DNA from: an uncultured Clostridia bacterium
Lineage (GTDB): Bacteria; Bacillota; Clostridia; Christensenellales; Borkfalkiaceae
Length of the DNA: 47,723 nucleotides
Assembly: GCA_964426105.1 (NCBI GenBank)
Contig: CAYRPB010000001.1
Span: 1 to 47,723 of the forward strand
Reading direction: 5' to 3'
Shown: one piece after another, positions 1,577 to 45,356 of the stretch
How positions within the stretch are numbered: position 1 is the first letter of the stretch
Layout: each line of letters begins with the position of its first letter
Program-made: the position numbers and the translations under genes
The notes under the pieces: model-generated
Database searches by the model: none
What the model was told of the DNA's origin: nothing
What the model saw: the letters and a program-made list of their open reading frames with translations, nothing else

Positions 1577-1624
1577 TGGTATTCTCCTATTTGATAAAAA
1601 AGACAGGGAAACCCCGCCTTTGTT

Positions 1625-1963
1625 TTATTTAATTTCGATTCCGTGAGGCGTAAAGAGAAAAATATTATTTTCCATTTCGTATACGCCTCCGTCTAACGCA
1701 TAAATTGCACCGCAGAGCATATCGAGTACGCGATATGCGGTGTCTTTCGCAAGTTCTCCGGTATGAACAACCGCTTGCTGTCCGTTTTTGAGGGTTGAGA
1801 TGACTTTTTCTACGTCTTTGAACGATTTCGGGTGAAATACGGTAACAGGACCTTTTTTAACGGTGTCAAAACTTTCTTCTCCGCGTTCGAAACGATCGAA
1901 ATTGATACGGCGTCTTTCCGTATTATCCTTTTCGGATCGTTGAAAAAAATCAAATAACCCCAT
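1625..1963 (-). CDS. sepF: Cell division protein SepF (DUF552)
   Basis: 112 aa. Variable N-terminus followed by a SepF-like core (VFHPKSFKDVEKVISTLKNGQQAVVHTGEL...AYRVLDMLCGAIYALDG). Lies directly downstream of ylmE/yggS, as in Firmicutes ylmE-sepF pairs. Confidence 0.82.
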   Translation of the reverse strand: MGLFDFFQRSEKDNTERRRINFDRFERGEESFDTVKKGPVTVFHPKSFKDVEKVISTLKNGQQAVVHTGELAKDTAYRVLDMLCGAIYALDGGVYEMENNIFLFTPHGIEIK

Positions 1964-13087: not shown

Positions 13088-14101
13088 ATGAAAATCATTG
13101 TTGATGCATTCGGCGGCGATCATGCTCCCGAAGAAATTGTAAAGGGCGGCGTAGAAGCGCTTGCGAAAAAGAAAGATTTAGAATTGATTTTCGTCGGGAA
13201 AAAGGCGGAAATAGAGAACGTCCTTTCTTCTTGTCGGTACGATGCCGATCGAATTGAAATCGTGGATGCGCCGGATGTGATTGCGTGCGAAGAAGAACCG
13301 ACGGTTGCGATCAAGCGAAAGCCGGATTCTTCTATTTGCGCAGGCTTTCGGCGATTGAAAGATGACGATTCCGTTTCCGGGTTTGTTTCGGCAGGCTCGA
13401 CGGGGGCGGTATTGGTTGGAGCAACGTTAAAACTCGGTCGTCTCAAAGGTGTTTCTCGTCCTGCCTTGTGTCCGTTTTTACCGACGGTGCAGGATTCAAA
13501 ACGCGTCTATTTGTTAGATGCAGGCGCGAATGCCGACTGCAAGCCGATCAATTTGGTGCAGTTTGCTTTAATGGGGGCTGCCTATGCGGAAGTTTTCGGC
13601 GTAAAAGAACCAAAAGTGGCGTTATTGTCCAACGGAACGGAAGATAAAAAAGGAAATGCGTTGAATCACGAAGTGTTTCCGTTATTAAAAGAGTTGCCGA
13701 TTGATTTTGTCGGCAATATGGAAGCGCGTGAAATTTTATCGGGAAACGTAGACGTCGTGGTTTCCGACGGTTTTTCCGGCAACATTGCGTTGAAGGGAAT
13801 GGAGGGCGCAATCGGAAATCTGATGTGCATTATGAAGGCTGAAATAATGTCTACGTTTAAGGGCAAACTCGGCGGTTTATTGCTGAAAGGTGCTTTTTCC
13901 GATATAAAAGACAAAATGGATTACAATCGTCAGGGGGGTGCGGTTTTTCTCGGCGTTGAAAAGGTCGTCGTAAAAGCACACGGCTCTTCCAAGAGCGACG
14001 CGATCTGCAATGCTGTTTTGCAGGCAACGGAAGCGGCGGAACGCGATATAATCGGTAAAATCAAATTAAAATTAGGGAATACGATAGGGGTTGCGGAATA
14101 G
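13088..14101 (+). CDS. plsX: Phosphate acyltransferase PlsX
   Basis: 337 aa. MKIIVDAFGGDHAP N-terminus, SAGSTGA, and the GNIALK/HGSS motifs typical of PlsX. Confidence 0.93.
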   Translation: MKIIVDAFGGDHAPEEIVKGGVEALAKKKDLELIFVGKKAEIENVLSSCRYDADRIEIVDAPDVIACEEEPTVAIKRKPDSSICAGFRRLKDDDSVSGFVSAGSTGAVLVGATLKLGRLKGVSRPALCPFLPTVQDSKRVYLLDAGANADCKPINLVQFALMGAAYAEVFGVKEPKVALLSNGTEDKKGNALNHEVFPLLKELPIDFVGNMEAREILSGNVDVVVSDGFSGNIALKGMEGAIGNLMCIMKAEIMSTFKGKLGGLLLKGAFSDIKDKMDYNRQGGAVFLGVEKVVVKAHGSSKSDAICNAVLQATEAAERDIIGKIKLKLGNTIGVAE

Positions 14102-19358: not shown

Positions 19359-21023
19359 TTGAATAAAACGTTATTACATAAATTAAAAGAAGCATTGCTT
19401 GCTGTTTTACCGATTACGATCATCATCTTGATTTTGAATTTTTCGGTTGCTCCGATGGATCGTTATCAGTTGTATAGTTTTTTGATCGGAGCGGTGTTTT
19501 TAATCCTCGGAATGGGGTTGTATTCCTTGGGGTGTGATACGTCCGTTGAACCGATTGGCGGACATATCGGTGCGAAAATAACCGAATCTAAAAAGATTTG
19601 GTTGATTTTGGCTGTTTGTTTTGTTCTCGGGGTTATCGTGACGATTGCCGAACCCGATCTTACCGTCCTTGCAACGCAAGTCGCCGGCATGATCGATAAA
19701 TGGGAATTGATTTTGACAGTGGCATTCGGCGTTGGTTTTTTTATGGTAATCTACGTATTGAGGACGGTATTAAAAATCAATCTGAATTTCGTTTTGATTT
19801 TTTTCTACGGCGTTTTGTTTTTATTGGCGGCATTTGTCGATGCGGGGTTTGTTCCGCTTGCCTTTGATTCGGGCGGTGTTACGACCGGCCCGATTACCGT
19901 GCCCTTTATTATGGCGCTCGGAGTGGGGATTTCGTCTGTTTTGGGCGGAAAAAACAGCCAAGATAACAGTTTCGGTATGATCGGCGTATGTTCGATCGGA
20001 CCGATTATTGCCGTTTTGATTTTGGGCTTGATTCATGACGTATCTTCGTTTGATTATGCTCTTTCCGTTCCGGAAACGTTTGGCAGTTTCGGAGAGGTTA
20101 TGGCGTTTTACATGAAAAGTTTGCCACATTATTTGGGAGAAGTAGCGATCGCGCTTTCTCCGATTGTTGGTTTTTTTGTGATTTTTCAGATTTTTGTTTT
20201 GAAATTGCCGTTAAAGCAATTGTTGAAAATCATTGTCGGAATTCTTTATACATATATCGGATTGTCGATTTTTTTGACGGGCGTTAACGTAGGTTTTATG
20301 TCGGCAGGGCAATATATCGGCGCGGAATTGGCTAAGGCAAATCGTTGGTTGATTATTCCGATTGGAATGATCGTCGGTGCGTGTATTGTTTTTGCAGAGC
20401 CTGCGGTTCACGTCTTGAACAAGCAGGTGGAAGAAATAACGGGTGGAACGATCACCCGATCTACCATGTTGATGGTGCTTGCAGCCTCTATGGCTTGCGC
20501 GTTGGGGCTTTCCATGTTGCGAGTCGTTACGGGAATCAGTATATGGTATATTATATTGCCCGGATATGCGATTGCTTTGACTATTTCTTTCTTTGTACCG
20601 AAGATATTTACGGCGATTGCGTTCGATTCCGGCGGAGTCGCTTCAGGACCGATGACGGCAACGTTCTTATTGCCGTTTGCGATCGGTGCTTGTTCGGAGA
20701 TAAGCGGAACGTCCGCTATCATGACGGATGCGTTCGGACTTGTTGCGTTGGTGGCGATGACGCCGTTGTTGACGGTACAAATTCTCGGGCTTGTTTATAA
20801 GTTGCATACCGCAAAAGCAACGAAAGTCGCTGCAAAACAATTCAAGGAACTTCTTGCGGAAGAGGGAAATGTTATTGAATTAGCGGAATATAATCCTGAA
20901 GAAAGTGTTAATATCGAAAAAAGAGGACGGCTAAAAACGAAAATCAAACGAGCGGAAGAGCGTGTAAAGCGAATCGTGAAGCAGAGAAAAGAAAAAAACG
21001 ATAAGGAGAAATCCGATGAATGA
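19359..21023 (+). CDS. DUF1538-type polytopic membrane protein (two fused DUF1538-like halves) with a K/E-rich tail
   Basis: 554 aa, TTG start 5 nt after AAGGAGA. Two homologous halves each carry AEP(D/A)..VL..QV and AFDSGGV(T/A)(T/S)GP(I/M)T motifs. C-terminal tail KRGRLKTKIKRAEERVKRIVKQRKEKNDKEKSDE. The family call is from memory of DUF1538 annotations. Confidence 0.72.
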   Translation: MNKTLLHKLKEALLAVLPITIIILILNFSVAPMDRYQLYSFLIGAVFLILGMGLYSLGCDTSVEPIGGHIGAKITESKKIWLILAVCFVLGVIVTIAEPDLTVLATQVAGMIDKWELILTVAFGVGFFMVIYVLRTVLKINLNFVLIFFYGVLFLLAAFVDAGFVPLAFDSGGVTTGPITVPFIMALGVGISSVLGGKNSQDNSFGMIGVCSIGPIIAVLILGLIHDVSSFDYALSVPETFGSFGEVMAFYMKSLPHYLGEVAIALSPIVGFFVIFQIFVLKLPLKQLLKIIVGILYTYIGLSIFLTGVNVGFMSAGQYIGAELAKANRWLIIPIGMIVGACIVFAEPAVHVLNKQVEEITGGTITRSTMLMVLAASMACALGLSMLRVVTGISIWYIILPGYAIALTISFFVPKIFTAIAFDSGGVASGPMTATFLLPFAIGACSEISGTSAIMTDAFGLVALVAMTPLLTVQILGLVYKLHTAKATKVAAKQFKELLAEEGNVIELAEYNPEESVNIEKRGRLKTKIKRAEERVKRIVKQRKEKNDKEKSDE

Positions 21024-21348
21024 GAAATTAAAGGTTATGATGATTATTGCGGAACGTGAGTTTTCTAAGAAAATCATTGAAAAAATCAAAGACGTCGGAG
21101 CGAATTATATTCACGCCGTGTATGCAAGAGGAACTGCTCGTACCGATTTGCTTGAAGTTTTAGGAATCGGAGAATCGGAAAAGATTTTGATTTTAGCAAC
21201 GGTTAAAGAGAGTAGAATTGAAGAGATTTATCAATATTTGCGGAATGATTTTAAATTTGAAAAAGCAGGGAAAGGGATTGCGTTTACGATTCCCGTCGTG
21301 AGCGTAGGCGGTCCCGCCACTTTACAGATTTTATCAGGAAGAGTTTAA
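21016..21348 (+). CDS. PII-like (GlnB superfamily) protein, copy 1
   Basis: 110 aa. PII-like beta-alpha-beta layout (KVMMIIAEREFSKKIIEKIKDVGANYIHAVYARGTA ... KILILATV ... AGKGIAFTIPVVSV). Its ATG overlaps the DUF1538 stop by 8 nt. Confidence 0.68.
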   Translation: MNEKLKVMMIIAEREFSKKIIEKIKDVGANYIHAVYARGTARTDLLEVLGIGESEKILILATVKESRIEEIYQYLRNDFKFEKAGKGIAFTIPVVSVGGPATLQILSGRV

Positions 21349-21357
21349 GGAGGAATT

Positions 21358-21687
21358 ATGGAATACGAATTGATTATAACAATCGTTAATCGCGGGTTTA
21401 ATGAAATTGTAATGGATGCGGCGCGTGCGGTCGGGGCGCGCGGCGGCACGATTATCAATGCGCGCGGAGCAGGCGCTCACGAAGCGGAAAAACTGTTCGG
21501 TATTTCCGTTCAGCCGGAAAAAGAGTTGGTTTTGATTCTTGCCGAAAAAGAGGGAAAGTCTGAAATTATGTCGGCGATTATTAAGGCTGCCGGCTTGAAT
21601 ACCGTCGGACAAGGGTTATGTTTCTCCGTGGCGGTAGAGGATGTTTTGGGTGTTGCGCTTCTAAACGCTCCGAAACAAGAGGAGTAA
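21358..21687 (+). CDS. PII-like (GlnB superfamily) protein, copy 2
   Basis: 109 aa. ELIITIVNRGFNEIVMDAARAVGARGGTIINARGAG ... ELVLILAEK ... VGQGLCFSVAVEDV parallels canonical PII (IEAIIRP.K...V..AL...G..G.T...V.G.G ... GDGKIFV..VE). GGAGG RBS. Confidence 0.74.
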   Translation: MEYELIITIVNRGFNEIVMDAARAVGARGGTIINARGAGAHEAEKLFGISVQPEKELVLILAEKEGKSEIMSAIIKAAGLNTVGQGLCFSVAVEDVLGVALLNAPKQEE

Positions 21688-21789: not shown

Positions 21790-23865
21790 TTAGAGATAAT
21801 AAAGCAAATCGCCGTAGTCGGGGAAAGGCCAATATTTCTTAGCGGTCAACAATTCCGCTTCGTCTACGCATTTTCTGAGTTTTTCCATAGCGGGCAGAAT
21901 TGAATCCTTATAATTCTTCGCACAATCAAATCCGCTGAGTTTTTCTGCTTTTGCAATTGCTTTTTCAAGCGATTCCGTCTTGGTTGTGATTTCGGAATAC
22001 AATGCGACTAGTTTGGTGAGCGTTTCGGTATTCGATTTTATTTCCAGCTGTTTTAACTTATAGGCTGTTTCCGATAATTCGCCTAAATAGTCGTTAATCG
22101 CAGGAAGAATCGATTTCTTTACCATATCGATTGCGGTTAAAGCCTCGATATGAATAATTTTGGAGTAGTTTTCCAAGAAGATTTCTTTACGGGATTGTAA
22201 TTCCGTTTCGGTAAAGATTCCGTGCTTTCCGAAGACTTCGACGTTTTTCTTATCTGTTAAATGAGGAAGTGCGTCGACAGTGGTTTTTAGATTCATTAAG
22301 CCGCGCTTTTCTGCTTCAACACTCCATTCTTCCGAATAGTTATTACCGTTAAAAATAATTCTTTTATGTTTTTTGAAAGTTTCCTTTATGATATCTTTAA
22401 CGCAGGAAGAAAGGTCGCCTGCGTGTTCCAAGCGTTCTGCGAACAGACTTAATTCTTCTGCGATAATCGTGTTGAGAACGGTATTGATATCCGCAATTGA
22501 TTGAGAAGAACCTGGCATGCGGAACTCGAATTTGTTTCCGGTAAAGGCAAACGGAGAGGTGCGATTGCGATCCGTACTGTCTTGCGGCAAACGAGGGAGT
22601 ACGTGAACGCCGATTTCTACGACGCATTTTGCGCGTTTGGAATAATTTCGATCTTCTTCGATTGCGTTGAGAATACCGGTGAGTTCATCACCGAGGAACA
22701 TAGAAACGATTGCCGGGGGGGCTTCGTTTGCGCCCAATCTGTGGTCGTTTCCGGGGCTTGCGACCGTAATGCGCAGCAAATCTTGATATTCGTCAACCGC
22801 TTTGATGACGGCTGAGAGAAAAAGAAGGAATTGTGCGTTGTCGTACGGCGTTTCGCCCGGTTCGAGTAAGTTAATACCGGTATCCGTCGAAAGAGACCAA
22901 TTGTTGTGTTTTCCGCTTCCGTTAACGCGTTCAAACGGTTTTTCGTGCAAAAGGCATTTTAATCCGTGCTTGCTTGCTATGTTTTTCATCAACTCCATTG
23001 TTAGTTGATTGTGATCGGTCGCGATATTCGTGCTGGAAAAGATGGGTGCGAGTTCGTGCTGACTGGGGGCGGCTTCGTTGTGTTTTGTTTTTGCAAGAAC
23101 GCCGAGTTTCCATAATTCTTCGTCAAGTTCTTTCATGTACGCAACAACTCTGGGTTTGATTGCACCGAAATAGTGGTCTTCCAATTCTTGTCCTTTCGGC
23201 GCGCGAGAACCGAATAACGTTCTGCCTGTAAAGACTAAATCGGGGCGTTTTGCGTAATCCGCCAAATCGACTAAAAAATATTCTTGCTCTGCACCGACGG
23301 TAGAAATAACTTTCCGAACGTCCGTTTTGCCGAATAATTTCAAAATGCGCAACGCTTCCGCGCTGATTGCTTCCATACTGCGAAGCAAAGGGGTTTTCTT
23401 GTCCAATGCCTCTCCGTTGTAACTGCAAAAAGCCGTCGGAATACAAAGAATATCGTCTTTGATAAAAGCATAAGAAGTGGGATCCCACGCAGTGTATCCG
23501 CGTGCCTCAAACGTCGAGCGGAGTCCGCCGGACGGGAAACTGGACGCGTCAGGTTCCCCCTTGATTAATTCCTTTCCGCTAAATTCCATGATTACGCCGC
23601 CGTCGGATGTGGGGGAGATAAACGAATCGTGTTTTTCAGCCGTAATGCCGGTCATGGGTTGAAACCAATGCGTAAAGTGTGTGACGCCGTGCTCGATCGC
23701 CCAATCTTTCATGGCGTTTGCGACGGCATTCGCGACTTCGATGTCCAATGCTTTGTTTTCTGCGATGCATTTTTTCAGCAAATTGTAAATGTCTTTCGGT
23801 AAGCGTTGCTTCATAATGCGATCGTTAAATACAAGACTGCCGAACAAGGTGGGAAGTTCCTTCAT
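21790..23865 (-). CDS. glnN: Glutamine synthetase, type III
   Basis: 691 aa, the length typical of GSIII. N-terminus [25 protein letters not shown]...[11 protein letters not shown] is characteristic of GlnN. AGGAGA RBS. Confidence 0.9.
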
Positions 23866-23892
23866 TTTTTTCTCCTGTTGATAGTATTTGAA

Positions 23893-23920
23893 CGAAAAAA
23901 TTCTCTTCGAAATTTTTTCG
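23893..23920 (-). promoter_or_regulatory. Perfect 10-bp A/T-rich inverted repeat in the glnN leader (CGAAAAAATT-N8-AATTTTTTCG)
   Basis: Arms at 23893-23902 and 23911-23920 are exact reverse complements. Lies about 20 nt upstream of the glnN RBS. It could be an RNA hairpin or a DNA operator. Confidence 0.3.
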
Positions 23921-23966
23921 CGATAAGTGTGCTTTTGTTAAGATAAATAAAACTTTAGTATGCGAT

Positions 23967-24003
23967 AAAAAAGAAAAAAGCGTTACGGAAAAAACCGCAG
24001 CGC
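23967..24003 (-). terminator. Leader terminator/attenuator upstream of glnN
   Basis: Minus-strand RNA GCGCUGCGG-UUUUUU-CCGUAACGC (9 positions: 7 Watson-Crick pairs, 1 G-U, 1 mismatch) followed by UUUUUUCUUUUUU. Lies between the predicted promoter and the glnN start, about 100 nt upstream of the ATG. Confidence 0.55.
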
Positions 24004-24011
24004 CTTTGCTG
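23998..24011 (-). promoter_or_regulatory. 4-bp hairpin with hexaloop AAAGGC overlapping the terminator 5' arm (candidate anti-terminator / ANTAR-type element)
   Basis: Minus-strand CAGC-AAAGGC-GCUG. The loop has A at position 1 and G at position 4. Its loop end and 3' arm (24003-23998) are part of the terminator's 5' arm, so the two structures are mutually exclusive. Confidence 0.35.
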
Positions 24012-24022
24012 TCTTTTATAAA

Positions 24023-24051
24023 ATTATAACAAACGATGTTTTTTTTGTCAA
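24023..24051 (-). promoter_or_regulatory. Consensus sigma-A promoter for glnN (TTGACA-17 nt-TATAAT with TGn extension)
   Basis: On the minus strand: TTGACA at 24051-24046, a 17-nt spacer ending TGT, TATAAT at 24028-24023. Confidence 0.7.
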
Positions 24052-24094
24052 ATCATTTTTAATGGATTTTTAAGAGAAAATTTTTATTATTTTA

Positions 24095-24123
24095 TTGACA
24101 ACGAAATAAAAATGTGATAGGAT
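24095..24123 (+). promoter_or_regulatory. Sigma-A promoter for the GS-like gene (TTGACA-17 nt-TAGGAT with TGn extension)
   Basis: TTGACA at 24095-24100, a 17-nt spacer, TG at 24115-24116, TAGGAT at 24118-24123. Back-to-back with the glnN promoter (43 bp between the -35 boxes). Confidence 0.55.
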
Positions 24124-24135
24124 TAAAAAATAAAA

Positions 24136-24201
24136 GGACAAGGGGGTTCTTCTCAAAAGACACAGTCGTTTGGGAGAACTCTCTTTCCCGTTTTATCGGG
24201 A
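24136..24201 (+). promoter_or_regulatory. Structured 5' leader of the GS-like gene (hexaloop hairpin, long hairpin, RBS-proximal hairpin)
   Basis: GGAC-AAGGGG-GUUC (24136-24149). A 14-bp imperfect hairpin at 24146-24179 with loop ACA shares its 5' arm with the small hairpin. UCCCG-UUUUAU-CGGGA (24186-24201) ends 1 nt before GGAGG (24203-24207). Confidence 0.4.
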
Positions 24202-24214
24202 CGGAGGTATAAAA

Positions 24215-25462
24215 ATGAAGTATTCGATTTCCGACGTTGTGGAATTTATTCAAGAAAACGATGTGAAGTTTATTCGACTTGTGTTTTGCGATTTGTTCGG
24301 CAGAATCAAAAATATTACCGTAATGTCGGATTGTATTGAGGAAGTTTGCAAAAAGGGTAAAGTGTTTACGCCGACCGGGATTGACGGGTTCGGGACGGAA
24401 GATCTTTTATTGTTTCCCGATCTCGATACAATGAATGTTTTGCCGTGGCGGCCGCAACAAGGGCGAGTAATTCGATTTATCTGTTCGGTTAAAAGGAAAG
24501 ACGGACAATGCTTTGACGGAGACGGAAGAGAGGCATTAAAGCGCGTATTAAACGAAGCCGCCGCGGAAGGATACCGATTAAAAGTCGGGACGGAATCCGA
24601 GTTTTATTTGTTCTGTACGGATGAAAAAGGCGATCCTACTTATCGTCCTCACGATAACGGGGGGTATTTGGATATGGCTCCGCTCGATAAAGGGGAGAAT
24701 ATTCGCCGCGAAATTTGTTACAATTTAGAGGCGATGGGGATTCGCCCTACGGCATCTCATCATGAACGAGGAAGGGGACAACATGAGATTGTCTTTGAAG
24801 AAAGCGATGCGTTAGAATCGTGTGATAATTTCATTTTTTTCAAATCTGCGGTAAAGGTTATAGCGGGGCTAAACGGACTGTACGCTTCTTTTATGCCGAA
24901 ACCGTTATTAAACGAAGAGGGAAACGGAATGAATATTACCATCGATCTATGGAAAGACGGAGAAAATCTTTTCGGGAAATCCATAGCGCATAAGACGACT
25001 TTGTTTGATGCGTTTTCGGTAGGCGTATTGTCTGAATTAAAAGGAATTACGGCGTTTCTCAATACTACCGTTAACTCGTACGAGCGTTTAGGGCAGTTTG
25101 ACGCTCCCGAAAGAATCGGTATGTCGGAAGCCCTATCTGATTGTGCTACGCGGATTGTGCAGGGCGTTGGGGGGGTAAAATTAGAGGTCCGTTCGCCCGA
25201 CGCTCTTTTGAATCCTTACTTTGCGCTTGCATTGTTGATTCGTGCAGGGTTAAACGGAATAAAGGAAAAAAAAGAACAATCTTCTTTGAATGAAAAATTA
25301 CCGATTACATTATCGGAAGCGTTAGATGCGGCTCGTGTCAGCAAAGTGGTAAAGGCAGTTGTCCCTTGCGCGGAGACATATTTTTCGCTTCAAGAGGGCG
25401 TGATTGTCGATGCGGTAAGAAATGTCGGATCGTATAGAGAAAAACTTTTTTATTTGGTTTAA
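24215..25462 (+). CDS. Glutamine synthetase type-I-like protein (divergent)
   Basis: I chose the ATG at 24215 (MKYSISDVVEFIQEN..., GGAGG 7 nt upstream) over the TTG at 24170; this gives 415 aa. GS motifs present: GTESEFYLF, SHHERGRGQHEIVF, NSYERL, EVRSPD..NPY. Several canonical motifs are altered (see findings). Confidence 0.78.
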   Translation: MKYSISDVVEFIQENDVKFIRLVFCDLFGRIKNITVMSDCIEEVCKKGKVFTPTGIDGFGTEDLLLFPDLDTMNVLPWRPQQGRVIRFICSVKRKDGQCFDGDGREALKRVLNEAAAEGYRLKVGTESEFYLFCTDEKGDPTYRPHDNGGYLDMAPLDKGENIRREICYNLEAMGIRPTASHHERGRGQHEIVFEESDALESCDNFIFFKSAVKVIAGLNGLYASFMPKPLLNEEGNGMNITIDLWKDGENLFGKSIAHKTTLFDAFSVGVLSELKGITAFLNTTVNSYERLGQFDAPERIGMSEALSDCATRIVQGVGGVKLEVRSPDALLNPYFALALLIRAGLNGIKEKKEQSSLNEKLPITLSEALDAARVSKVVKAVVPCAETYFSLQEGVIVDAVRNVGSYREKLFYLV

Positions 25463-25467
25463 TCGGT

Positions 25468-26040
25468 ATGGAAAGTGTGTTGTTAGCGGCGTCTTCCGAG
25501 CAGAGCGCTGTTGCAATCGGGAAACTCGTTGCAAAATACGGCGTTCACGATATCGTTTTTGTATCAAACGGTATGGAAGCACGCAGAAAATTGCTTGAAC
25601 GTGCGTTTGATTTGTTGGTAGTGAACGCGCCTCTTTCCGATGAGTACGGAGAAGCCCTAGCGCGAGACGTTTCGGCAGGGTATCGGACGCAGGTTTTGTT
25701 ATTGGTGCGTGAAAATACGGGAGAAATCGCTTATAAAATGGAGCAATGCGGTGTATTTACGCTTGAGCGCCCGATCAATCATATCGTTTTTTTTAACGTA
25801 TTAAAAATGATTAATGCGGCGCATTATAAGTTCGTACAAGTATATGAGGAGCGAGAACGATTAAAGAGTCGTTTGGAAGATATGCGGCTAATCGGTTTGG
25901 CAAAATGCCTTTTAATCGAAAAACTTTATTATACGGAAGCAGCCGCGCACAAGCAGATAGAAAAAATTGCAATGAACGAGCGAAAAAGCAAGTTGCAAGT
26001 CGCTCGTGAAATAATAGAGAAATATCGTTCTTTGGAGTAA
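25468..26040 (+). CDS. ANTAR-domain RNA-binding regulator with a degenerate (pseudo-)receiver domain
   Basis: 190 aa. C-terminal ANTAR-like helices (RLEDMRLIGLAKCLLIEKLYYTEAAAHKQIEKIAMNERKSKLQVAREII). N-terminal CheY-like fold with Asn in place of the phospho-acceptor Asp (DLLVVNAPL). Lies 5 nt after the GS-like gene. Confidence 0.82.
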   Translation: MESVLLAASSEQSAVAIGKLVAKYGVHDIVFVSNGMEARRKLLERAFDLLVVNAPLSDEYGEALARDVSAGYRTQVLLLVRENTGEIAYKMEQCGVFTLERPINHIVFFNVLKMINAAHYKFVQVYEERERLKSRLEDMRLIGLAKCLLIEKLYYTEAAAHKQIEKIAMNERKSKLQVAREIIEKYRSLE

Positions 26041-26044
26041 ATAA

Positions 26045-27637
26045 ATGACAAAGTATATTTTTGTAACGGGCGGCGTTGTGTCCGGTTTGGGCAAGGGAAT
26101 TACCGCGGCTAGTCTTGGGCGACTTTTGAAAGCGCGCGGATTAAAGGTCGCTGCGCAGAAGTTAGATCCTTATATCAATATCGATCCTGGCACGATGAGT
26201 CCTTATGAACACGGAGAAGTTTTTGTAACGGAAGACGGCGCGGAAACAGACCTCGATCTCGGTCATTACGAGCGGTTTATTGATGAAAATCTCAACAAGT
26301 TTTCCAATTTGACCACGGGAAAGGTTTATTGGAACGTTTTGAATAAGGAACGTAACGGAGATTATCTCGGAAAGACCGTTCAGGTGATTCCGCATGTAAC
26401 CAACGAGATTAAGTCTTTTATTTATAACGTCGGAAAAAAGACGGACGCGGACGTTGTAATTACGGAAATCGGGGGAACGATCGGCGATATCGAAAGTCAA
26501 CCGTTTTTGGAAGCGATTCGACAAGTTGCTTGGGAAGTCGGGCGTGAAAACTGCCTTTATATGCACGTGACACTTGTTCCTTATATTTCCGGTTCTTGTG
26601 AGTTCAAGAGCAAACCGACGCAACATTCAGTTAAAGAAATGCAGGGTTTGGGAATTCACCCCGATCTTATTATTGCTCGCGTCGACGCACCTATGCCGCA
26701 GGACGTTAAGAGAAAAATTGCATATTTTTGTAACGTAAAAGAGGATTGCGTGATTGATAATATTACGGTTTCTTCTTTATACGAAGCCCCGTTAATGTTA
26801 GAAAACAGCAATCTTTCGGAGATTGTTTGTCGAGAATTGAGAATCTGTGCGCAAGAGGCGGATATGAAAGAATGGATTGAAATGGTCGATCGTATTCATC
26901 GTCGGAAATTGCGCGTCACGATCGGAATTGTCGGGAAATACGTGCGTTTACACGATGCGTATCTTTCTGTCGCGGAATCCTTAATGCATGCAGGCTTTGA
27001 AAATAATGCGGTTGTTGAGATTGCTTGGATTGACAGCGAAACGATTACGGAACAAACTGCGGACGATTTGCTTGGAGGGTTAGACGGGATTCTTGTCCCG
27101 GGCGGATTTGGAAATCGCGGAATCGAGGGAAAAATCCAAACGGCAAAATATGCAAGGGAGCACGATATCCCTTATTTGGGAATTTGCTTGGGAATGCAGA
27201 TTGCCGTGATTGAATTTGCTCGCAACGTATTGCGTTTGCCTCGCGCGAATTCAAAAGAATTCGACGAGGGGAGCCCCGATTGTGTAATCGATTTAATGCC
27301 GGATCAATTCGGCGTGCAGATGGGAGGAACGATGCGTTTAGGTGCTTACCCTTGTGCGGTGAAGAGCGGAACGCTTTTAGACCGCGCTTACGATTTGCCG
27401 TTGATTCAAGAGCGTCATCGTCATCGCTTTGAGTTTAATAACGTCTATCGTGCGGCGTTTGAAAAGAGCGGCATGATTTTTTCCGGATTATCTCCGGACG
27501 GAAAATTAGTGGAAGCGATCGAAATTCCTACGCATCGTTTTTACGTCGGGGTACAGTATCATCCTGAATTCAAATCGCGTCCGAATCGCGCGCATCCGCT
27601 TTTCCGCGAATTTGTGAAAGAATCGTTAAAGCACTGA
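26045..27637 (+). CDS. pyrG: CTP synthase
   Basis: 530 aa. [20 protein letters not shown]-terminus and a C-terminal amidotransferase (GICLGMQ, QYHPEF). Confidence 0.95.
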
Positions 27638-44484: not shown

Positions 44485-45356
44485 GGGTAAGAAAAGCAGT
44501 TATCCCTGCGGCAGGGTTAGGGACTCGTTTTTTGCCGATTACCAAGGCGATTCCGAAACCGATGCTTCCGATTGTCGATAAGCCGTCCATTCATTATATT
44601 GTGGAAGAGGCGGTAGAGGCAGGAATAAAAGACATTGTAATCGTCGTGAGCGAGAAAACCGATGCGATCGAGACGTATTTTTCGGAAAATTCTGCGCTGG
44701 AAGCAAAGTTAAAAAGAGAGGGAAAGACCGATCTTTATCGCTCTGCGGCAGAACCGTCGCGAATGGCAAAAATACAATTTGTCACGCAAACGGATTTAAA
44801 CGGGCTTGCCGGGGCGATTTTATGCGCGGAACGCATTATCGGAAAAGAACCGTTTGCTCTTTTGTTGGGCGATGAAGTTATTTTCCATGAAGAAAAGGAA
44901 ACGCCTTGTATAAAGAAGTTGATCGACGTTTATCAAGATACGAATAAAAGCGTAATTGCTACGATGAAAGTTTCAAAAGAGAATTTATCGAAATACGGCA
45001 ATCTCGGAATCAAGGATAAACGGGCGGATCGTAAAATCGTTACCAAAATCGTGGAAAAGCCGAAACAAGGAGAAGAACTCTCCGATTATGCGATCATCGG
45101 TCGATACGTCTTTTCCAACGAGATTTTCGATTACATTAAAAAATCGCGCGTATTAAACGGGGAAATCTATCTGACGGATGCGTTGGAGATTCTTGCGGAG
45201 AAAAGTCGTTTATTGGCGACGCGTTTTGAGGGGACTCGGTACGATATCGGGGATAAAGCCGGATACGTATCTGCGAATATCGCTTATGCGTTAAAGCGAG
45301 GCGATCTTTCTGCCGAAATCGGCAATTTTATTAAAACAATATCCGAACGCTTATGA
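44481..45356 (+). CDS. galU: UTP--glucose-1-phosphate uridylyltransferase
   Basis: 291 aa. KAVIPAAGLGTRFLPITKAIPKPMLPIVDKP signature and LLGDE. ATGA overlap with rpiB. Confidence 0.92.
   Translation: MRVRKAVIPAAGLGTRFLPITKAIPKPMLPIVDKPSIHYIVEEAVEAGIKDIVIVVSEKTDAIETYFSENSALEAKLKREGKTDLYRSAAEPSRMAKIQFVTQTDLNGLAGAILCAERIIGKEPFALLLGDEVIFHEEKETPCIKKLIDVYQDTNKSVIATMKVSKENLSKYGNLGIKDKRADRKIVTKIVEKPKQGEELSDYAIIGRYVFSNEIFDYIKKSRVLNGEIYLTDALEILAEKSRLLATRFEGTRYDIGDKAGYVSANIAYALKRGDLSAEIGNFIKTISERL

Follow-up and report, generated by a model that had tools for sequence, protein, structure and literature searches.

The stretch of DNA analysed here, called the window throughout, comprises 47,723 nucleotides (nt) of contig CAYRPB010000001.1 from an uncultured Clostridia bacterium and contains two divergent genes related to glutamine synthetase (GS). 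The first, glnN (21790-23865, minus strand), encodes a type III glutamine synthetase of 691 amino acids (aa) with the Pfam domains GSIII_N, Gln-synt_C and Gln-synt_C-ter. The second is a GS-like gene (24215-25462, plus strand), which encodes a GSI-alpha-like protein of 415 aa and is followed on the same strand by the gene of an ANTAR regulator (25468-26040, 190 aa) and by pyrG (26045-27637). The latter encodes CTP synthase, a glutamine amidotransferase, and is the last gene of this GS-like/ANTAR operon. A gap of 349 nt separates glnN from the GS-like gene and contains two divergent sigma-70 promoters. The analysis indicates, with a probability of roughly 0.8, that both divergent transcripts begin with an ANTAR-dependent attenuator made of a single hairpin. 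The gene controlled by the minus-strand leader switch would be glnN.

The glnN promoter (24051-24023, minus strand) is formed by the -35 box TTGACA (24051-24046), a 17-nt spacer and the -10 box TATAAT (24028-24023), and matches the consensus at 12 of 12 positions. The promoter of the GS-like/ANTAR operon (24095-24123, plus strand) contains the -35 box TTGACA (24095-24100), a 17-nt spacer and the -10 box TAGGAT (24118-24123), with 10 of 12 consensus matches. In both promoters TG precedes the -10 box. The glnN transcript probably starts at an A near 24015-24017, and that of the GS-like operon near 24130. Given these promoters, each small hairpin described below begins about 5 nt into its transcript.

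The small hairpin of the glnN leader (23998-24011, minus strand) consists of the arms CAGC (24011-24008) and GCUG (24001-23998) and of the hexaloop AAAGGC (24007-24002). Its stem energy is -3.7 kcal/mol, and a covariance model matches it at 23990-24019 with 27.7 bits (E about 9e-4). The intrinsic terminator of the same leader (23967-24007, minus strand) has the stem AAAGGCG-C-UGCGG / CCGUA-A-CGCUUUU (24007-23976) and the form (AAAG)GCGCUGCGG-U6-CCGUAACGC(UUUU), then U6CU6. The core GCGCUGCGG/CCGUAACGC ends at 23980 and the U-rich run extends from 23979 to 23967, its first four U being able to pair with the A-rich 5' extension. With an energy of -14.1 kcal/mol, the terminator is the minimum-energy fold of the leader. 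Its 5' arm draws on the small hairpin's loop and 3' arm, beginning within the hexaloop itself, and when the small hairpin is enforced in a constrained fold the terminator stem is unable to form. Further downstream, an A/U-rich hairpin of 12 base pairs (bp) is placed between the terminator and the ribosome-binding site (23892-23921, minus strand). It is retained with compensatory changes in a close relative, L001, as CGAAAAGAUUC[CAAAGC]GAAUUUUUUCG, and is absent from the short glnN leader of a second one, L002. This hairpin could provide another weak stop, be a site of processing or stabilise the transcript.

The small hairpin of the GS-like leader (24134-24151, plus strand) has the arms GGAC (24136-24139) and GUUC (24146-24149) around the loop AAGGGG (24140-24145), and its stem can be extended to AAGGAC/GUUCUU over 24134-24151. 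The covariance model matches it at 24128-24157 with 22.8 bits (E about 0.02). In the large competing hairpin (24140-24185, plus strand; -29.9 kcal/mol, z = -3.87), GGGAGAACUCUCUU is the pairing partner of the small hairpin's hexaloop and 3' arm; a weak U-rich run, UCCCGUUUU, comes after this large hairpin. Then comes a short hairpin, UCCCG-UUUUAU-CGGGA (24186-24201, plus strand), and after it the Shine-Dalgarno sequence GGAGG (24203-24207) and the ATG at 24215. In the large-hairpin state the partner of the segment CUCUCUU (24180-24186) is the hexaloop AAGGGGG. In constrained folds of the window and L001 leaders that enforce the small hairpin, the same segment can pair with the Shine-Dalgarno GGAGG, a pairing that is possibly a translational layer on the GS-like/ANTAR operon. 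Given this second partner of CUCUCUU, the sign of the control is less secure for the GS-like operon of the window than for glnN. A possible second hexaloop, ACAGUC, at the tip of the plus-side large hairpin was considered and discarded, as it is not retained in L001 or L002.

The two small hairpins are found where the initial annotation, made from the letters of the window, had located them. They are far above chance, are the sole well-scoring sites in the 47.7-kb window, and carry, as proposed there, A at the first and G at the fourth loop position (A1 and G4) in both AAAGGC and AAGGGG. The proposed overlap with a larger hairpin exists in both leaders and involves a clear terminator on the glnN side, the U tract of the plus-side hairpin being weak. 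The annotation had also described a common leader start, ATAAAAG(G)ACA. This sequence is indeed common to both window leaders, and the pattern has 4 matches in the window for 0.29 expected, two of the four in coding sequence. As a conserved element it had to be abandoned: it is lost in L002 and in the distant loci, and only L001, a 94%-identical relative, retains it. It is an A-rich transcript start joined to the first stem bases. The two matches in coding regions (13904-13913 and 44625-44634, plus strand) are further exact copies of ATAAAAGACA, the second within a GIKDIV-coding stretch. The 10-mer is over-represented, yet not leader-specific.

The recurrence of the hairpin was followed in a comparison set of 1.27 Mb (loci L001-L089), of which both strands were scanned. 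The two close relatives were obtained from a scan of genome collections with the GS-like protein, and a search of the regulator alignment against metagenomes gave 80 distant loci from gut, rumen, termite-gut and bioreactor samples. L001 and L002 retain the divergent glnN / GS-like layout. In L002, whose GS-like protein is 79% identical to that of the window, the glnN leader contains GGC[AAGGGC]GCC with a terminator, and the GS-like leader contains AGAAGAC[AAGGGG]GUUUUCU, with a G-C to A-U change, followed by a hairpin and UUUUCUCGUU. Compared with the window, the loops are the same, the stems are changed with compensation and ATAAAAG is gone. The distant ANTAR homologues are 31-42% identical. 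One type of context has the order GS-like, ANTAR, purF, pyrG; a second has glutamate-synthase-like genes, GS-like, ANTAR; and in a third glnN is divergent from ANTAR-pyrG and both leaders carry the hairpin, as GGC[AAAGGC]GUC and GAGC[AAUGGC]GUUC.

Related Clostridia loci with a homologue of the window ANTAR protein contain about 31 non-redundant copies of the hairpin. The downstream genes are glnN, GS-like/ANTAR operons, asnB-like genes, glmS, pyrG, purF, gdhA, amtB, purA and a gltB-like gene for the amidotransferase subunit of a glutamate-synthase-like operon, and they are one coherent set. Many loci have pyrG placed 3' of the ANTAR gene, and the pyrG of L074 possesses a hairpin and terminator of its own. 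The search suggested in the initial annotation thus gave most of the expected regulon, with the motif found before amtB, gltB-like and GS genes; the DUF1538 operon of the window, also expected to carry it, has no copy.

The stem of the family has 3-8 bp and the loop follows the consensus AA(A/U/G)G(G/A)(C/U/G). A1, A2 and G4 are invariant in 27 aligned copies, and so is the closing C-G pair (27/27). An overlapping and mutually exclusive terminator is present in 28 of the 31 copies, with a median energy of -24 kcal/mol for the terminator and -4.9 kcal/mol for the small hairpin. Canonical promoters were recognised in 24 of 31 leaders; from the end of the -10 box there are 5-14 nt to the start of the stem (median 9) and 11-18 nt to A1 of the loop. 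The pairing is supported by covariation, with 46 cells changed on both sides of a pair compared with 21 in shuffles, and with a covariation score that none of 500 shuffles reached. Pairing is 83% and drops to 31-50% when the partner columns are slid. Stem pairs 4 and 5, which were unused in selecting the sequences, are 85-93% paired and show five pair types each. The loop AAAGGC is also an outlier among ANNGNN hairpins overlapping terminators, with 20 copies and at most 7 for any other loop.

The number of hairpins per leader is the feature that sets this family apart. Canonical ANTAR substrates are composed of two hexaloop hairpins, P1 and P2, in tandem with a short linker, and EutV requires both in vivo (PMC3369931). 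A second ANNGNN hexaloop hairpin was present within 50 nt upstream in 1 of 31 copies (background 13% per 50-nt interval) and within 60 nt downstream in 5 of 31, which is not above background. Moreover, only 5-14 nt separate the end of the -10 box from the stem and, therefore, the transcript has no room for an upstream hairpin. The element is thus not a dual-hexaloop substrate. On the other hand, ANTAR binding requires A1 and G4 (PMC3369931), and both window hairpins have these bases in a hexaloop on a stem of at least 3 bp (4 bp for glnN and 4-6 bp for the GS-like leader). The overlap with a terminator that is typical of ANTAR targets is likewise present, being clear on the glnN side. The structure of EutV with RNA revealed one dimer gripping a single hexaloop, and the minimal site was redefined as one hexaloop (PMC8934654). 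The suggestion of the initial annotation that the leaders hold a single, non-canonical and minimal ANTAR substrate is supported by the scarcity of upstream hairpins and the closeness of the -10 box.

The ANTAR regulator scores 47.2 bits against the Pfam ANTAR model (cut-off 27.3). Its structural model (pLDDT 92.9) has a receiver-like domain, a long helix and an ANTAR three-helix bundle, and the Foldseek full-length matches include RNA-bound EutV (TM 0.79), Rv1626 and AmiR, the best sequence match in the PDB being AmiR. The phospho-acceptor Asp is replaced by Asn (N53), which is near-invariant in 18 homologues; the regulator is therefore a pseudo-receiver like AmiR. Domain score, fold and the missing phospho-acceptor all place it in the AmiR-like pseudo-receiver subgroup, and no kinase gene adjoins the regulator gene in the window or in the related loci examined. 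The Lys of the conserved AK motif is retained. Where EutV has the aromatic residue (Tyr) for stacking on G4, the regulator has His, as does AmiR.

In 53 of the 58 loci with enough sequence the gene immediately before the ANTAR gene is GS-like; L006-L009, which contain both the motif and the ANTAR gene, have no GS-like gene in the adjacent position. The window GS-like protein resembles GSI-alpha enzymes over residues 1-353 and is about 30 residues shorter than the best-matching ones (442-449 aa). It obtained 284.8 bits with the NCBIfam model TIGR00653 (GlnA), whose cut-off is 429, and hence is not a GlnA equivalog by this model. In the window clade GNGMN replaces GSGMH and SDCATRIV is found at the RSQLIRIP region, and most of the ANTAR-linked GS-like relatives have GQNEI for GQHEI. 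The ANTAR-linked GS-like protein may be a pseudo-enzyme. In the AmiC-AmiR and NasS-NasT systems the ANTAR regulator is controlled by a sequestering sensor protein. By analogy, and given the gene adjacency, the GS-like protein may sense the nitrogen status and hold or release the regulator.

The following sequence of events is proposed. The polymerase would start at a strong sigma-70 promoter and, after no more than about 50 nt for glnN or 60 nt for the GS-like operon, have made a stable hairpin at which it stops or stalls. The first 20 nt have an alternative fold, the weak hairpin of 4-6 bp with the hexaloop AA(A/G)GG(C/G). As its loop and 3' arm form the 5' arm of the stop hairpin, the two folds are mutually exclusive. 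We infer that the ANTAR protein encoded at 25468-26040 would bind the small hairpin through A1, G4 and the C-G closing pair and stabilise it. The bound hairpin would then block the terminator and glnN would be read through. One hairpin would constitute the whole binding site, with no upstream recruitment hairpin. The regulator being AmiR-like and non-phosphorylatable, its activity would most likely be set by the GS-like protein encoded upstream, which as a sensor of glutamine or nitrogen would hold or release it, as AmiC does AmiR. Of this scheme, sequence and comparison establish the structures with their competition, conservation, covariation and association with genes, as well as the regulator fold; binding by the window protein, the direction of the response and the role of the GS-like protein as sensor are predicted. 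The co-control of both GS genes by the ANTAR protein, as advanced in the initial annotation, is thus a prediction from sequence comparison in favour of which speak the recurrence of the element, its covariation, the terminator exclusivity and the match to the core of the Geobacter GnfR site discussed below; this interpretation is supported, and the observation behind it is partly confirmed.

Several points weigh against this interpretation. The hexaloop of the GS-like leader ends in G, unlike the C or U of most copies, and the sequence after its large hairpin, UCUCUUUCCCGUUUU, is not a clean U tract and fails a strict terminator rule. The transcription starts were placed from the promoter consensus, and the sequencing runs matching the window sequence are DNA metagenomes only, with no RNA run among them. 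All comparison loci were collected through the ANTAR gene, and the association of motif and regulator therefore refers to loci that encode the regulator. From the side of the known mechanism, the upstream P1 hairpin is required in vivo for EutV (PMC3369931), and the authors of the EutV-RNA structure (PMC8934654) expected sites with one hexaloop mainly in settings in which the polymerase sets no time limit.

Among the other explanations, one concerns the logic of the GS-like side. There, the bound small hairpin would free CUCUCUU to mask GGAGG, and the regulator would damp its own operon. The pairing of these segments in the constrained window and L001 folds, together with the weak U tract after the plus-side large hairpin, agrees with such an inverted or translational control. 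We nevertheless consider it unlikely, as L002 and the distant GS-like leaders (L013, L015, L016 and L021) have canonical terminators with U tracts, L002 is devoid of the anti-Shine-Dalgarno pairing, the CUCUCUU pairing is short and the two states are similar in energy. Alternatively, the switch could be real and its reader be something other than the neighbouring ANTAR protein, namely the GS-like protein, a PII-type protein or another RNA-binding protein. That the parts of the circuit vary, as in L006-L009 where the motif and the ANTAR gene occur without the adjacent GS-like gene, would suit such a reader, as would the mode of collection of the loci, on which the association of motif and regulator rests, and the predicted nature of the binding by the window protein. 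This alternative becomes quite improbable when it is considered that the loop obeys the A1/G4 rule of ANTAR targets with a conserved closing pair, that in many loci the motif stands before the very operon that contains the ANTAR gene and that the same core is bound by an ANTAR regulator of Geobacter.

Two further explanations dispense with an RNA-binding protein. An inverted repeat with a 6-bp spacer at +5 to +20 is in the typical position of a repressor, and the element might be a DNA operator for a dimeric repressor at the transcription start, the RNA fold being incidental. However, the arms vary and covary and the spacer is fixed, the opposite of what protein operators show. In addition, the transcribed strand always carries the asymmetric loop, which is always fused to a terminator arm that starts within it, and there is no GlnR/TnrA box at either promoter: the sole intergenic near-match (23936-23952, one mismatch) is in the glnN leader, and the total for the window is below chance. 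An operator of this kind is thus very improbable. The same can be said of a metabolite riboswitch, or of an unregulated attenuator or 5' stabilising hairpin. The element does precede glutamine-related genes, and a glutamine riboswitch is known in other phyla, but it has only 14-22 nt, the small hairpin is far too weak to beat the terminator unaided, and the strict loop conservation over diverse stems points to a protein reader. Rfam gave no match at gathering score in the window and only chance-level ones at E up to 10 in 23800-24300; by this search the element belongs neither to the glutamine riboswitch nor to any other Rfam cis-regulatory family.

Some additional observations were made in the window and the related loci. 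The DUF1538 / PII operon (19359-21687, plus strand), which showed no match to the motif with the covariance model, consists of a gene for a DUF1538 membrane protein followed by two small PII-like genes, and has sub-threshold NCBIfam similarity to the UmpA/UmpB subunits of a cation/proton antiporter. At 1601-1633 (minus strand), ACAAAGGCG is fused to the terminator GGCGGGG-UUU-CCCUGUC, then U6. This site is found directly after the stop of the open reading frame 1625-1963 and about 25 nt before guaA, which encodes GMP synthase, a glutamine amidotransferase. It scores weakly with the model (15.3 bits, E = 1.7), has a poor stem and is either a degenerate member of the family or a plain terminator. 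In L059 (1681-1830, plus strand) a single leader contains two tandem attenuators of the family with the loops AAAGAC and AAAGAU, each with its own terminator. The GS-like leader of L003 (95-200, plus strand), a locus whose ANTAR homologue is 42% identical, has a promoter and a long terminator, and the hexaloop hairpin is replaced by UAGAC[CAAGU]GUUUA, a possible pentaloop variant.

In the current model of ANTAR action, P1 recruits the protein so that P2 is reached before the polymerase completes the terminator. A large natural family with one hairpin at the extreme 5' end would show that the two-hairpin model is not general, and the pair of a minimal 20-nt RNA and a 190-aa protein would serve mechanistic work. 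Many uncultured Clostridia of gut and rumen may couple the supply of glutamine (glnN, GS-like, gltB-like, gdhA, amtB) to its spending (pyrG, purF, asnB-like, glmS), and the GS-like protein emerges as a candidate sensor. A broader proposal, which we hold tentatively and at somewhat less than even odds, is that a single 5'-terminal hexaloop suffices in vivo, that the pseudo-receiver is gated by a GS-like pseudo-enzyme acting as nitrogen sensor, and that the resulting glutamine regulon extends across gut, rumen, termite-gut and bioreactor Clostridia beyond assimilation to the amidotransferases (pyrG, purF, glmS, asnB-like). For annotation, the motif is absent from Rfam, and the dual-hairpin covariance models in use were not built for the one-hairpin form.

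The ANTAR control of nitrogen genes is already known as a prediction. A survey in 2012 (PMC3369931) reported matches to ANTAR targets preceding asparagine synthase and amtB in Clostridia and, in Alkaliphilus, a GS+ANTAR operon. What is new is the single-hairpin, 5'-terminal architecture in many loci, a tight loop consensus in common with the Geobacter site, a regulon that also takes in glutamine amidotransferase genes, and the combination of a degenerate GS with an ANTAR protein of the pseudo-receiver type. Compared with the dual-hexaloop substrates of EutV, NasR and AmiR (Ramesh 2012, PMC3369931), the elements are alike in the short stem, the A1/G4 hexaloop with a sequence-conserved closing pair, the bases common to the terminator and the regulator encoded nearby. 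The window family differs by having one hairpin, with neither P1 nor room for it, a far more constrained loop (AA-R/U-G-R-C/U/G) and a terminator arm that starts within the loop.

With AmiC-AmiR and NasS-NasT, the window system has in common a 190-aa regulator composed of pseudo-receiver, coiled coil and ANTAR domain, whose gene is directly 3' of that of a candidate ligand-binding partner. The candidate partner here is a GS-like protein and not a periplasmic-binding-protein fold, and its interaction with the regulator is suggested by adjacency only.

The closest match of the RNA site is in Geobacter sulfurreducens, in which the ANTAR regulator GnfR binds in vitro an RNA of the nifH leader that contains CAGGCAAGGGCGCC (Ueki and Lovley 2010, PMC2995071). 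This sequence overlaps the nifH terminator, gnfR mutants terminate prematurely, and several leaders of nitrogen genes have terminators that the consensus CAGGCAANGGCGCC overlaps (PMC2995071). The family core GCAANGGCG matches CAGGCAANGGCGCC and is thus of the GnfR type: the window glnN leader carries GCAAAGGCG, the GS-like leader the variant ACAAGGGGG and the L002 glnN leader GGCAAGGGCGCC. In the nitrogen-gene leaders of both systems the core GGC[AANGGC]GCC (L002 glnN leader AAGGCAAGGGCGCC, window glnN leader CAGCAAAGGCGCUG) shares bases with the upstream half of an intrinsic terminator. The site was described in 2010 as a linear sequence and not as a hexaloop hairpin (PMC2995071). GnfR, a response regulator, can be phosphorylated and has a partner kinase, whereas the window receiver has no acceptor Asp and its candidate partner is GS-like. 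The Geobacter promoters with GnfR sites are RpoN-dependent; those of the window are of the sigma-70 type, with the hairpin at the extreme 5' end. Finally, GnfR is centred on nif genes and the window regulon on the use of glutamine (glnN, pyrG, purF, asnB-like, glmS).

In Clostridium saccharobutylicum, NitR was proposed to anti-terminate GS/GOGAT genes (PMC6316151). The likeness of the glnA-nitR system of C. saccharobutylicum and C. acetobutylicum (Stutz et al. 2007, as cited in PMC6316151 and PMC4676874) to the window comprises a GS gene followed by an ANTAR gene and a proposed anti-termination under nitrogen limitation. This system reportedly also uses an antisense RNA, of which no evidence was seen at the window locus. 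The window GS-like protein, on the other hand, scores below the GlnA cut-off, and a separate gene, glnN, encodes what would be the main controlled enzyme.

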